Below, in pieces: positions 3,624-9,030 of a stretch of DNA of 64,000 nt. Positions within the stretch are counted from its first letter, which is position 1. Every line of letters starts with the position of its first letter. This DNA is from Promethearchaeia archaeon (GTDB lineage: Archaea > Asgardarchaeota > Lokiarchaeia > Sigyniarchaeales > SOKP01): contig JAHQWK010000016.1 of assembly GCA_029856145.1 (NCBI GenBank), forward strand, positions 32,001 through 96,000, read 5' to 3'. Position numbers and translations under genes: made by a program. The notes beneath the pieces are model-generated. The model was not told the origin of the DNA. It did not search any database and saw only the letters and a list, made by a program, of their open reading frames with translations.

Positions 3624-4771
3624 AAAAAGTAAAATTAGAAAAATCAAAAGGCGAAACTTACTATATTAAAGGAAAGGGTATTCCTAAAGGATGCAAATAT
3701 TGTTTAAAAGGATCTAAAGTAGTTTTATTTTTAAATGGTATCTGCCAAAAACCAGATCATTGTTCTTGGTACTGTCCAATTTCAGAAGAAAGGAGAGGGA
3801 AAGATATAACATTTGCTGATGAAATACAAATTAAAAATAAAGAAGAATTACTCCAAGAAATTGATATAATTAATGCTCAAGGAATGAGTATTACTGGGGG
3901 AGAACCACTTTCAGAATTAAATCTTGAAAAAACTATTGATTATATTAATTATGTTAAAGCAGCGAAAGGAAAAAAGTTCCACATCCATTTATATACAAAT
4001 GGTATTGATTTTAATGAAAATATTGCTAAAAGACTTTCTCTTGCGGGATTAGATGAAATAAGATTCCACCCTGCAAGAAAACACTGGTTAAATATTAAAA
4101 AGGCTCTAAATAAAAAAATAAGTGTAGGAGCAGAAGTTCCAGTTATCCCAGGAAATAAAAATAAAAAGTATCTTGAGGAATTTATACGTTATTTAGACAA
4201 TATCGGTGTAGATTTTATTAATTTAAATGAATTTGAATTTTGTTTTCCTAATAGTCAGTCACTTAAGGATCGAGGATTCAAATTGAAAAAAGATTCAATT
4301 GCTGCTGTTGTCAATAGTCAAGAAACAGCTTTTAATCTAATTCGAAAATTAGGGACTGAAGTTAATATAAAGATGCATTTCTGTTCAATAAGAGCTAAAG
4401 ATTATCATCAATTGAAGAATAGATATATTCGGAGAGCTAATAATGTTAAATTACCTTATGAAGTAATTACTGAAGAAGGACTTTTACTATATGCACAAAT
4501 TGAAGGAGAAGAAAAAGAACTGGATAAATTTTATGAAAATCTATTATTTGATCTCAAAATTCATGATAAATTGTTATCCTATGAAGAAAAATATATTAGA
4601 ATGCCCTTCTATATTTCAATCGAAGATCATGTCATATCCTTAATAGAAAGATATGAGCTAAAAGGATATATAATAGAAACTTTACCTTTTAGACGTTTAA
4701 AATACAAACAAATAACAGAAAAGACTCCTATAAAAGTATTTAAGAATGAAAATGGTCTTAATGGAAATTAA
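3620..4771 (+). CDS. Radical SAM protein (conserved archaeal family)
   Basis: 'GCKYC..GSKVVLF', Cys cluster CQKPDHCSWYC, 'SITGGEP', 'HIHLYTNG', 'LDEIRFHP'. Confidence 0.85.
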   Translation: MKKVKLEKSKGETYYIKGKGIPKGCKYCLKGSKVVLFLNGICQKPDHCSWYCPISEERRGKDITFADEIQIKNKEELLQEIDIINAQGMSITGGEPLSELNLEKTIDYINYVKAAKGKKFHIHLYTNGIDFNENIAKRLSLAGLDEIRFHPARKHWLNIKKALNKKISVGAEVPVIPGNKNKKYLEEFIRYLDNIGVDFINLNEFEFCFPNSQSLKDRGFKLKKDSIAAVVNSQETAFNLIRKLGTEVNIKMHFCSIRAKDYHQLKNRYIRRANNVKLPYEVITEEGLLLYAQIEGEEKELDKFYENLLFDLKIHDKLLSYEEKYIRMPFYISIEDHVISLIERYELKGYIIETLPFRRLKYKQITEKTPIKVFKNENGLNGN

Positions 4772-5219
4772 AAAGGTAACTTTAAAAGATTTAAAGCGAA
4801 TCGTAAATCTTGAGCAAAAAATTTTTAAAAAGAATGCATTTTCAAAGGATTTAATAAAAAATTTGATTGAAAATAATGCACTCTTTTTAAAATTGGAAAT
4901 TGGTAACGTAAAAAAAAAATTAATTGGTTTTATAATAGTTATAATGGATAAAAAGGATAGAGCCAATATGATTAATTTTCTTATTAAACCAGAATTTCAA
5001 AATAAAGGTTTTGGTTCATATATTCTTCAAAAAACTATAGATAAAATAAAAGATTTAAAGGGAATTAAAAAAATAGTATTAAATGTTCAAATAAGTAATT
5101 CTGCTGCTATTAAATTGTATGAAAAATTTAAATTCAAAAAAAATCCAGCAATTCTTGAAAATTACTATCCATCTGGAGAATCTGCGTTTCTTATGGAATT
5201 GAAATTAGAAATTAACTAA
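4746..5219 (+). CDS. GNAT N-acetyltransferase, RimI/Ard1-like
   Basis: 'PEFQNKGFGS', 'LNVQISNSAAIKLYEK..NYYPSGESAFLM'; the start may be the ATG at 4761. Confidence 0.9.
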   Translation: MKMVLMEIKKVTLKDLKRIVNLEQKIFKKNAFSKDLIKNLIENNALFLKLEIGNVKKKLIGFIIVIMDKKDRANMINFLIKPEFQNKGFGSYILQKTIDKIKDLKGIKKIVLNVQISNSAAIKLYEKFKFKKNPAILENYYPSGESAFLMELKLEIN

Positions 5220-5313
5220 AACTAAAACTTATAAATAAATTCTATTATATTTTTTGTAAATATATCAATTTAATTATTTTACGAGAATTTAAAATAAAAG
5301 GTGTTAAATAAAA

Positions 5314-5466
5314 GTGGCTCCAGCAGATAAAGAACTACAAGAAGAAATTAAAAAAGGCGTTTCACTTCAAAAGGTCGATGAAGCAGAGTTAAAGAAAAGA
5401 GAAGAAGAAAAAAAGAAACGCATGGAAGAATTAGAAAAAGTTAAAGAAGCTTTAGGAGAAAAGTAA
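5314..5466 (+). CDS. Unannotated 50-aa protein with a WH2/actobindin-like motif
   Basis: GTG..TAA gives MAPADKELQEEIKKGVSLQKVDEAELKKREEEKKKRMEELEKVKEALGEK; AAGGTG upstream, T-rich tract downstream. Confidence 0.75.
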   Translation: MAPADKELQEEIKKGVSLQKVDEAELKKREEEKKKRMEELEKVKEALGEK

Positions 5467-5492: not shown

Positions 5493-5525
5493 GTTTTTAT
5501 CTTTTTTATTTATTTTATTTTTCTT
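5493..5525 (+). terminator. Oligo-T terminator-like tract after the small ORF
   Basis: Several T runs immediately after the stop at 5466. Confidence 0.45.
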
Positions 5526-5618: not shown

Positions 5619-6692
5619 TTGAAAATTCTCAACATAGATCAAAAACATGGAGAAGTTACAGTTAAGACTGAAAGCCTTAACGATCTGTGGTCATTATATA
5701 ATATTATCATTAAAGATGATCAAGTGTCTTCCCTAACTCAAAGAAGAGTTGTTCTTAAAGAAGGAACTTCAGGCGAGCGTAAATTAATGAAATTAAAACT
5801 CAAAGTTGAATCTGTGTCTTTTCATGAATTTTCAAATCGATTAAGAATAAAAGGTAAAATTTTAGAAGGACCAGAGGATTATGTTAGCTTTGGAACTTAT
5901 CATACATTTAATATAGAAGTTTCTCAAAAGTTAACAATAATTAAAGAAAATTGGTTAAAAAATGAATTAAGAAGACTAAAAGAGACCTCAAAATTCGAAT
6001 CAAACTTTATTACATTAATTATTGGAATTGAAACCGGTTTGGCAACCTTAGCTCTTATCACAAATTTTAGCCATAATAGGATAGCTACAATTAGAAAAAA
6101 CATACCAGGTAAAAGATATAAACAAACTTATAGAAATAAGGCATTAAATGAATTTTTTACAGATATTCAGAAAGTAGTAATAGAAAATATTAAAAACTTG
6201 GAGATAAATTTAATCATTGTATGTGGACCTGGAAATACCAAAGATAATTTTATAAATTTTCTTCAAAAAACACCTAGTTTTGACTTTAAAGGTAAAATTG
6301 AGACTTGTCATGCAAGTTCTGGGACTGAAAGCGCAATTAGAGAAACTCTAAAATCAAAAAAGTTAGATAGTCTTAAAAATAAAATTAAAGTTTTACAAGA
6401 AGCTGAGAAGATAGAAAATATAATGACACAATTTGCCACAGATGCTGATCTTATTGTTATAGGCCTTGATGAGGTGTCTAAAGCTTCTGAAAAAGGAGCA
6501 ATTAAAGAGTTATTGATAGCGGATGTATTAATTAGAGGATCTTCAAAAAAAAATAAACTAAAAATTGAAGAAATTATAACAAGTGTTGAAGATACTGGTG
6601 GAAAAATTAGTATTATGAGCACAGAAAATCTAACTGGAGAACAATTAGTAGGTCTAGGATCAATAATAGGAATTTTACGATATAAACTCTGA
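5619..6692 (+). CDS. pelA: mRNA surveillance protein Pelota (aPelota/Dom34)
   Basis: 'ESLNDLWSLYN', 'FHEFSNRLRIKGKI..G.YHT', 'GPG..K', 'GEQL..LG.I.GILRY'. Confidence 0.95.
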   Translation: MKILNIDQKHGEVTVKTESLNDLWSLYNIIIKDDQVSSLTQRRVVLKEGTSGERKLMKLKLKVESVSFHEFSNRLRIKGKILEGPEDYVSFGTYHTFNIEVSQKLTIIKENWLKNELRRLKETSKFESNFITLIIGIETGLATLALITNFSHNRIATIRKNIPGKRYKQTYRNKALNEFFTDIQKVVIENIKNLEINLIIVCGPGNTKDNFINFLQKTPSFDFKGKIETCHASSGTESAIRETLKSKKLDSLKNKIKVLQEAEKIENIMTQFATDADLIVIGLDEVSKASEKGAIKELLIADVLIRGSSKKNKLKIEEIITSVEDTGGKISIMSTENLTGEQLVGLGSIIGILRYKL

Positions 6693-7816: not shown

Positions 7817-8452
7817 GTGGGATTGAAAATGAGTCCAATTATAACCCATGAGGATGAATTAGAACTTGCTAAAATGGAAAAAGAATTAGTCTCCCAATTT
7901 AAGAAATTGGCTAAAGCACAGAATTCACTTATTAGTTCTCAAATTAAATACGCGGAAAATATAACTAAAGCAAATAATATTCGAGAAATGTTAACCCGAA
8001 CTTTTAGAGATGTATTAAAACAAATGCAGACTCTTGCTCGAGAGCATAGATCTAACATTAAAGATGAGGAAGTAAACTTATATAAAGATATAATCTCAAA
8101 AAATGACGATTATGTTAAAGCAAATAATACTTATTTAAATGCGATTAAAGACATTGCAGTACAAAAAGAATATCTAGTGCAAAAAAAAGAAGAATTTGTC
8201 GATGCATTAGCAGAACTCGCTGATAAAAGATCAATAGTGATAAAAAAAGCATTAGATGCTGAGAAAGCGAAAAATAAATTAATTGACGGCGATAAATTAA
8301 ACATCCTCGACCAACAATTAAATGATGTTCAAAGAGATTTTGACAGAGCTCGAGATATATTAATAAAAAAAATATATCAATTTACTGAGGTAAGAGATGA
8401 AATTAATACTCTCTGGATTAAATTAAAAGACACTATTACTGAATTAAGCTAG
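7817..8452 (+). CDS. All-helical coiled-coil protein, possible SNX/Vps5-type BAR domain
   Basis: About 207 aa helical; C-terminal 'KAKNKL..DKLN.L.QQLNDVQRDFDRARD.LIKKIYQF..R' resembles BAR helices 2-3. ATG at 7829. Confidence 0.6.
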   Translation: MGLKMSPIITHEDELELAKMEKELVSQFKKLAKAQNSLISSQIKYAENITKANNIREMLTRTFRDVLKQMQTLAREHRSNIKDEEVNLYKDIISKNDDYVKANNTYLNAIKDIAVQKEYLVQKKEEFVDALAELADKRSIVIKKALDAEKAKNKLIDGDKLNILDQQLNDVQRDFDRARDILIKKIYQFTEVRDEINTLWIKLKDTITELS

Positions 8453-8580: not shown

Positions 8581-9030
8581 ATGTGTGCTGAAGAATTTGC
8601 AAGCTTCTTAGATAGTACTCGAAAAGCACCATTGGAAGAAAAACTAAATGCTTTTGGTGATATTATTGAAAAGATAATGTCTATTATCTTACGCATCCCT
8701 GATTTGGTTGATCAATCCTTAGGCTCAGTAAATGAGAAAGTATCAAATTTACAAAACCAAATTAATTCTCTGAATAGTCAAATAACATCAGGTCAATTAA
8801 GATCTGGAGGTGCTCCAGCAACAGCGACTCTTGCACCAGCTGGTCCAGCGGCAGCACGTGCACCCGGAGGTCCACCTCCACCACCACCTAGTGGTCCACC
8901 CGGAGGTCCACCCGGAGGTCCAGGTCCTGCCCCTACTCCTGCCCGTCCGGCAAGTCCAGTATCACTTAGAGGGGCAATTATGGGAGAATTAAAGAGTCTA
9001 TTTGCTAAGCGTAAGACCCAATCTGGATAA
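8581..9030 (+). CDS. Coiled-coil + polyproline + C-terminal amphipathic-helix protein (WASH/VASP-like architecture)
   Basis: GPPPPPPSGPPGGPPGGP tract; C-terminus 'LRGAIMGELKSLFAKRK'. Confidence 0.8.
   Translation: MCAEEFASFLDSTRKAPLEEKLNAFGDIIEKIMSIILRIPDLVDQSLGSVNEKVSNLQNQINSLNSQITSGQLRSGGAPATATLAPAGPAAARAPGGPPPPPPSGPPGGPPGGPGPAPTPARPASPVSLRGAIMGELKSLFAKRKTQSG

Follow-up and report, generated by a model that had tools for sequence, protein, structure and literature searches.

A conserved WH2-like microprotein of Loki-type Asgard archaea is a candidate actin regulator

The window analysed here is a 64,000-nucleotide stretch of DNA from a Promethearchaeia archaeon, and the feature under study is an intact open reading frame (ORF) of 50 codons that is flanked by a GNAT/RimI gene and by pelota (Table 1). 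The original prediction had described a stand-alone ORF with a Shine–Dalgarno-like AAGGTG and an oligo-T end, and both elements were found, as were the 15-mer that it quoted and the charged E/K tail of the peptide. The product carries 14 K/R and 15 D/E, that is 29 charged residues, with a net charge of about −1. The promoter word TTATAAAT lies at the same distance from the gene in nearly all of the 34 orthologues considered below. A scan for sigma-70 promoters and hairpin terminators, a type of scan ill-suited to archaea, gave nothing above chance.

Table 1. Features at the microprotein locus, in positions of the window.
Feature	Positions	Strand	Basis or remark
GNAT/RimI gene	4746–5219		Flanking gene
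Putative BRE/TATA-like archaeal promoter	5220–5240	+	TTATAAAT at 5229–5236
Shine–Dalgarno-like AAGGTG	5298–5303	+	10 nt ahead of start; SD-like word in 31/34 orthologues
50-aa microprotein gene	5314–5466	+	Intact ORF, GTG start, TAA ending at 5466; conserved; orthologue in L. ossiferum proteomes
Predicted amphipathic WH2-like helix, residues 3–15 (L8/I12/G15)	5320–5358	+	AF2 helix 3–14; family alignment
LKKT-like motif, residues 18–21, in predicted non-helical stretch	5365–5376	+	LQKV here, L-x-K-[V/P] in family; AF2, alignment
Predicted long helix, residues 23–49: E/K/R-rich first part, amphipathic end (M37, L40, V43, L47)	5380–5460	+	AF2
Oligo-T tract, terminator-like	5494–5525	+	Similar tract 3′ of most orthologues
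pelota	5619–6692		Flanking gene
211-aa all-helical coiled-coil protein	7817–8452	+	Two genes behind pelota; conserved in same-genus loci
149-aa coiled-coil/polyproline protein	8581–9030	+	Polyproline/GPPGG tract; short C-terminal helix (R..IM.EL)

Structure prediction with AF2 gave a helix at residues 3–14 (pLDDT 84–89), a non-helical stretch at 15–22 and a second helix at 23–49, with an overall pLDDT of 88 and a pTM of 0.42. A fold search with this two-helix model returned generic helices only (best Z 4.2), and the peptide is predicted to have no independent tertiary fold, a feature that it would share with WH2. The host genome encodes four actin-family proteins, one of which is a 381-aa Lokiactin, and contains one copy of the module, the stand-alone gene. 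Two further genes of the window deserve mention in their own right. The 211-aa coiled-coil protein matched no Pfam family above cut-off. The C-terminal helix of the 149-aa protein has the register of a WH2 helix and lacks L-x-K-V, and the same helix precedes the module in the fusion proteins P0182, P0210 and L154. Because this neighbourhood is not preserved in other families, clustering with these coiled-coil and polyproline genes was given no weight as evidence.

An orthologue was matched in 34 of 36 genomes of the same genus, mostly at 78–96% identity, and most other genomes of the order also match the gene. Variation among the 34 orthologues falls mostly at third codon positions (pS 0.56, pN 0.095, dN/dS about 0.10), and the start codon alternates between GTG, ATG, TTG and CTG while staying in register. 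In all, 247 homologues of similar length were found, under Promethearchaeota or Lokiarchaeota names. With a profile of 80 members, the two best-sampled families of the order were seen to carry the gene in 87 of 95 and 10 of 10 genomes; the few genomes searched from other orders of the class gave no match, and matches elsewhere were marginal. The orthologues DSAG12_00453 (P. syntrophicum) and NEF87_002417 (L. ossiferum) are recorded as hypothetical proteins, so that the description of the gene as unannotated holds for the ORF track only. By mass (8.24 kDa) and gene order, NEF87_002417 corresponds to GNAMCCOK_02436, a protein quantified in every one of 16 proteome columns (mean 18.41) and represented by five peptides in the co-immunoprecipitation (Co-IP) sheet of a published L. 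ossiferum study (bioRxiv 10.1101/2025.11.30.690169). An ORF that is short, of low complexity and GTG-started might have arisen by chance in AT-rich intergenic DNA, but the same-genus matches, the proteome detection of the orthologue and the dN/dS refute this view, to which the 247 homologues are also opposed, and we give it practically no weight. The ORF is thereby confirmed as a genuine gene, under strong conservation in Loki-type Asgard archaea. The conservation on which the original prediction depended is borne out, and so is translation, in the orthologue.

Residues 8–21 of the peptide follow the spacing LxxxIxxGxxL-x-K-V of WH2 (WASP-homology 2), a short actin-binding motif of animal cells. 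Counted over 80 family members, the helix positions are occupied by L8 in 60, by I or L12 in 77 and by G15 in 68, and the motif after the glycine keeps its spacing, with L18 in 75/80, K20 in 70/80 and V21 in 62/80. Position 19, which is Q here, is free (Q in 6/80 and K in 15/80; A, K, E, S, Q and D occur), and the family motif is L-x-K-[V/P]. Of the LQKV on which the original prediction relied, the L, K and V are thus conserved and the Q is not. The columns conserved at 90% or more are E32, K33, K35, R36, E39 and L40, all in the C-terminal helix. The constraint on this helix at least equals that on the WH2-like half, and what had been treated as charged filler is the most conserved part of the peptide.

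We compared the peptide and its family with WH2 at several levels. The bare WH2-like pattern is worth little, because about one chance match is expected per genome: it matched twice in 2.43 M ORF residues of the host genome and 0–2 times in shuffled versions. The peptide had no match to Pfam WH2 (PF02205) up to E 5, a scan of the genome gave none up to E 10, and Pfam Thymosin (PF01290) was listed neither for the peptide nor for the sets of 29 and 80 family members. One full-length family member, P0157, encoded on a 797-bp metagenome contig, scores 23.7 bits over its full length and 24.5 when trimmed, above the WH2 gathering score of 23.1 bits, and 7 of the 80 members reach E 1 or better. Single WH2 stretches score no more than about 8–13 bits. 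When the family profile was run against 177,635 PDB sequences, the best match was a tandem N-WASP WH2 construct (E 0.0043, summed over three stretches), and three of the top four matches were WH2 peptides, in N-WASP and MIM chains. A profile of the N-terminal half gave seven PDB matches, among them VopL, Spire and N-WASP, and the helix of residues 3–15 aligns with the WH2 helices of N-WASP, VopL, Spire and MIM. Against 1.84 billion proteins, the family profile retrieved a WH2-repeat protein, P0204 (E 5e-4; hhalign 68%), and in the ESM Atlas the first named cluster was Thymosin (0.87), which we take as a lead only. The interpretation proposed originally is partly supported. Overall, the tests of WH2 likeness point one way, weakly but convergently; they are not independent, because all rest on the same few residues.

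Some other matches from these searches were set aside. Those to Pfam DUF7067, DUF3006 and the H-NS N-terminal family lie far under the cut-offs and were taken as charged-helix noise, and repeats of bacterial sensor proteins (P0141, P0188) match in the KKR..EL stretch only. P0204 itself, a 439-aa protein from a Logan contig, has a signal-peptide-like start and about six WH2 repeats (Pfam WH2 E 3e-23), and resembles an actin-binding protein secreted by a host-associated bacterium.

A sister microprotein of 53–62 aa was reached through weak matches in another Asgard family, where it is present in 19 of 19 genomes (L155:1471-1647 (+) and L157–L179). Two of its NCBI records are named Hermodarchaeia/Hermodarchaeota and others Thorarchaeota or Promethearchaeota; since these names differ, a Hermodarchaeia-like taxon is probable rather than certain. 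The sister has the same N-terminal half (ELKREIKKGAKL-x-H-[V/A]). A linker of some 11 residues follows, and then a conserved short C-helix whose end resembles that of the P. syntrophicum orthologue. An alignment of the two families with hhalign covered the N-halves only (80%, 23 columns). The Hermodarchaeia-like profile found no WH2 chain in the PDB and gave one weak match to Pfam WH2. From their sequences, the two microproteins are likely to be homologous, and since two lineages keep the WH2-like half with different tails, this half may be argued to be the functional core.

The module also occurs in larger proteins. In the family of L. ossiferum and P. syntrophicum, a module of about 45 residues is repeated in about ten (ten to eleven) tandem copies in proteins of 480–500 aa (L051:4361-5827 (-); L046–L053), whose genes usually adjoin yggS and in some genomes also the thermosome beta gene. 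AF2 predicted helices of 35–38 residues split by motif loops in the repeat protein of L. ossiferum, with no tertiary fold (pTM 0.17). One, two or four copies are found behind profilin-like domains (P0159, P0168, P0207, L151), which match Pfam Profilin at E 2.5e-4 to 1.5e-3 and have as nearest PDB chains 5zzb, 5yed and 5zza, which we take to be Asgard profilins. At L124:5001-6164 (+), L138:5001-5909 (+) and L151:2001-2765 (-), a profilin-like domain and one to four modules are followed by a shared C-terminal domain. Other fusions involve Ras-like GTPases, LRRs, ribbon-helix-helix domains and a coiled-coil/proline-rich protein. The ribbon-helix-helix domain accompanies the module alone or behind a Ras-like GTPase or LRRs (L152:1889-2857 (-), L153:1727-2785 (-), L154, L149, L035, L045); if the module binds actin, such fusions could, speculatively, be actin-sensing transcription regulators. 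At L150:1440-2234 (+), in genus g19, a coiled coil, a proline-rich stretch and a C-terminal module follow one another in a WASP-like arrangement. Several fusions have an altered WH2-like helix, or one that an insertion splits from the motif; the fusions are patchy and absent from the host genome. A word-index search for longer relatives had returned one chimeric-looking record; the fusions came from an exhaustive search.

The formaldehyde-crosslinked Lokiactin Co-IP of L. ossiferum (bioRxiv 10.1101/2025.11.30.690169, Supp. Table 2) contains both forms of the module. The stand-alone orthologue GNAMCCOK_02436 lies under the authors' threshold and is not significantly enriched (log2 0.57, adjusted p 0.105). 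The 488-aa repeat relative UYP47766, located between UYP47765 and UYP47767, is GNAMCCOK_04085 according to the Supp. Table 3 offset, with a listed mass (56.41 kDa) identical to that computed. At log2 4.53 (adjusted p 0.0021; 44 peptides and 366 spectra), this protein ranks 4th among the valid Co-IP proteins, slightly higher than actin (log2 4.44) and higher than every gelsolin; the only profilin called enriched is at log2 1.07. Antibody cross-reaction through sequence likeness was not supported: the repeat protein does not look like the antibody peptides. In the passages searched of the preprint and of the Nature version, the repeat protein is not mentioned. The list is noisy: 59 proteins reach log2 1.7, and a ribosomal-L1-like protein stands at 2.7. 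GTP cyclohydrolase I (L144:13241-13780 (+); GNAMCCOK_04250 by mass and order) ranks 3rd at log2 5.1, which may be either background or an unexplained association. The profilin fusions and the Co-IP of the repeat relative give indirect support to a link between the family and actin.

In our preferred reading, to which we assign a probability of about 0.55, the 50-aa peptide is a WH2-like binder of Lokiactin and probably a monomer buffer; that it binds actin in some way seems quite probable. It would be a separately transcribed, unfolded peptide that binds in the WH2/beta-thymosin manner. For the individual binding steps and the effect on polymerisation we infer the following course. The N-helix would dock in the subdomain 1/3 cleft of Lokiactin, the site at which WH2 binds G-actin; the host Lokiactin keeps the cleft-lining segments of eukaryotic actin. 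L-x-K-V would bind beside the acidic loop of actin, and the long C-terminal helix would add a second contact, giving a 1:1 monomer buffer. Since one module would bind one actin, the peptide would most likely buffer or sequester monomers, competing with profilin and gelsolin, and the relative with ten copies may line up several actins as a nucleator or filament-side ruler. Several points speak against this reading: the peptide matches neither Pfam WH2 nor Pfam Thymosin, conservation is strongest outside the WH2-like half, the family does not retain the first basic residue of LKKT, the stand-alone orthologue reached log2 0.57 in a Co-IP that is crosslinked and noisy, and the module is also joined to ribbon-helix-helix, Ras-like and LRR domains, for which no tie to actin is known.

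These same fusions, together with the coiled-coil/proline-rich one, would be in keeping with a view of the module as a docking or oligomerisation element for a non-actin partner, with a chance likeness to WH2 and with the free peptide acting as an adaptor or dominant-negative microprotein. The peak of conservation in the C-terminal helix and the weak WH2 scores fit this as well. However, the fusions are patchy and absent from the host genome, whereas nearly every genome of the two best-sampled families has the free peptide, the second family keeps only the WH2-like half, and neither the profilin fusions nor the Co-IP rank of the repeat protein would be explained. We consider a non-actin partner unlikely. 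A role as a small charged factor associated with translation or nucleic acids is suggested by rimI and pelota, one or both of which flank the gene at every same-genus locus and at several loci from other families, and by the K/E-rich composition. The gene nevertheless has its own promoter and T-tract, neither neighbour was found at L026–L028, L030, L032, L036–L039 and L128, the net charge is slightly negative, and no ribosomal or nucleic-acid-binding match of note appeared in PDB or Pfam, so that we judge such a role highly improbable.

It is also conceivable that the peptide binds Lokiactin filaments, at the side or barbed end, for instance as a one-unit competitor of the repeat protein. The long-pitch spacing of F-actin is 55 Å, and the helices predicted in the repeat relative, at about 52–57 Å, would come near it. 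That the repeat relative is enriched like gelsolins in the Co-IP, and that ordinary WH2 has nothing corresponding to the long conserved helix, would agree with filament binding. A filament-bound peptide should, however, come down with crosslinked Lokiactin, yet the orthologue did not exceed log2 0.57, and the host genome, with its one module copy, has no repeat protein to compete with; filament binding appears very doubtful to us.

Asgards maintain a pool of actin monomers and start filaments with no nucleators known, and in this context a near-universal WH2-like microprotein and a tandem-repeat relative ranked high by Co-IP become candidate actin regulators. The literature searched, which included few subscription papers, gave no account of Asgard proteins that are free WH2 modules or thymosin-like, and on sequence grounds the family is a good candidate for an overlooked kind of archaeal actin regulator. 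Should the peptide bind actin, archaea would control actin in the WH2/thymosin mode, whether through descent or through convergence. Tentatively, and at somewhat less than even odds, free WH2 modules might form a third class of Asgard actin regulators beside profilins and gelsolins. One part would be a thymosin-like monomer buffer, represented by the 50-aa gene and by its sister from a second class of Asgards; the other would be the protein of ten repeats, acting as a nucleator or as a ruler of filaments. On this view, the modules would share ancestry with the WH2/beta-thymosin fold of eukaryotes and predate it.

Among known archaeal systems, Asgard two-domain gelsolins contain a four-residue WH2-like LKKT motif (LRRV, LKHV, LVDV, LKDV), non-basic variants included, that binds actin (PMC9433394, PMC7444086). 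Their motif lies between folded gelsolin domains without a WH2 helix, whereas the 50-aa peptide is a free helix plus motif. In Pyrobaculum, a short helix of arcadin-2 blocks the hydrophobic groove of archaeal actin, and a functional analogy to thymosin has been proposed (PMC5173319). Arcadin-2 differs in having no WH2 sequence likeness, a reversed orientation, a place within a larger protein and crenactin as its partner. Actobindin of amoebozoa is likewise a small protein of WH2-like units. It comprises a pair of units within about 88 aa, for two actin monomers bound; the 50-aa peptide has one unit rather than two in tandem, and the actobindin label given originally does not apply.

Beta-thymosins (PF01290) and ciboulot resemble the archaeal peptide in being tiny, charged and stand-alone, with an N-helix, L-x-K-V and a C-terminal helix, and in having a multi-repeat relative. 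At 50 aa, 29 of them charged, and with its own promoter, the peptide also has the size and character of a beta-thymosin (about 40–50 aa, charged). Beta-thymosins sequester ATP-G-actin, slow its nucleotide exchange and carry an extended EKNxLP linker ahead of a short pointed-end helix. This linker is absent from the alignment, the predicted C-helix starts two residues after the motif (residue 23), and the peptide has no Pfam Thymosin match, so that the beta-thymosin label does not apply either. The longer linker and short C-helix of the Hermodarchaeia-like sister come nearer to the thymosin layout, and are the most thymosin-like seen. With WH2 (PF02205; N-WASP, MIM, Spire, VopL), the family differs in its free first basic motif position, in the conserved 27-residue helix that follows directly, and in the stand-alone gene with a product below the Pfam cut-off. 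The two agree in the amphipathic L..I helix, in G-x-x-L at the same spacing, in the L, second K and V of an LKKV-like motif, in single, tandem and fused use and, by prediction for the archaeal family, in having no fold of their own. By sequence, the archaeal family reaches the edge of Pfam WH2.
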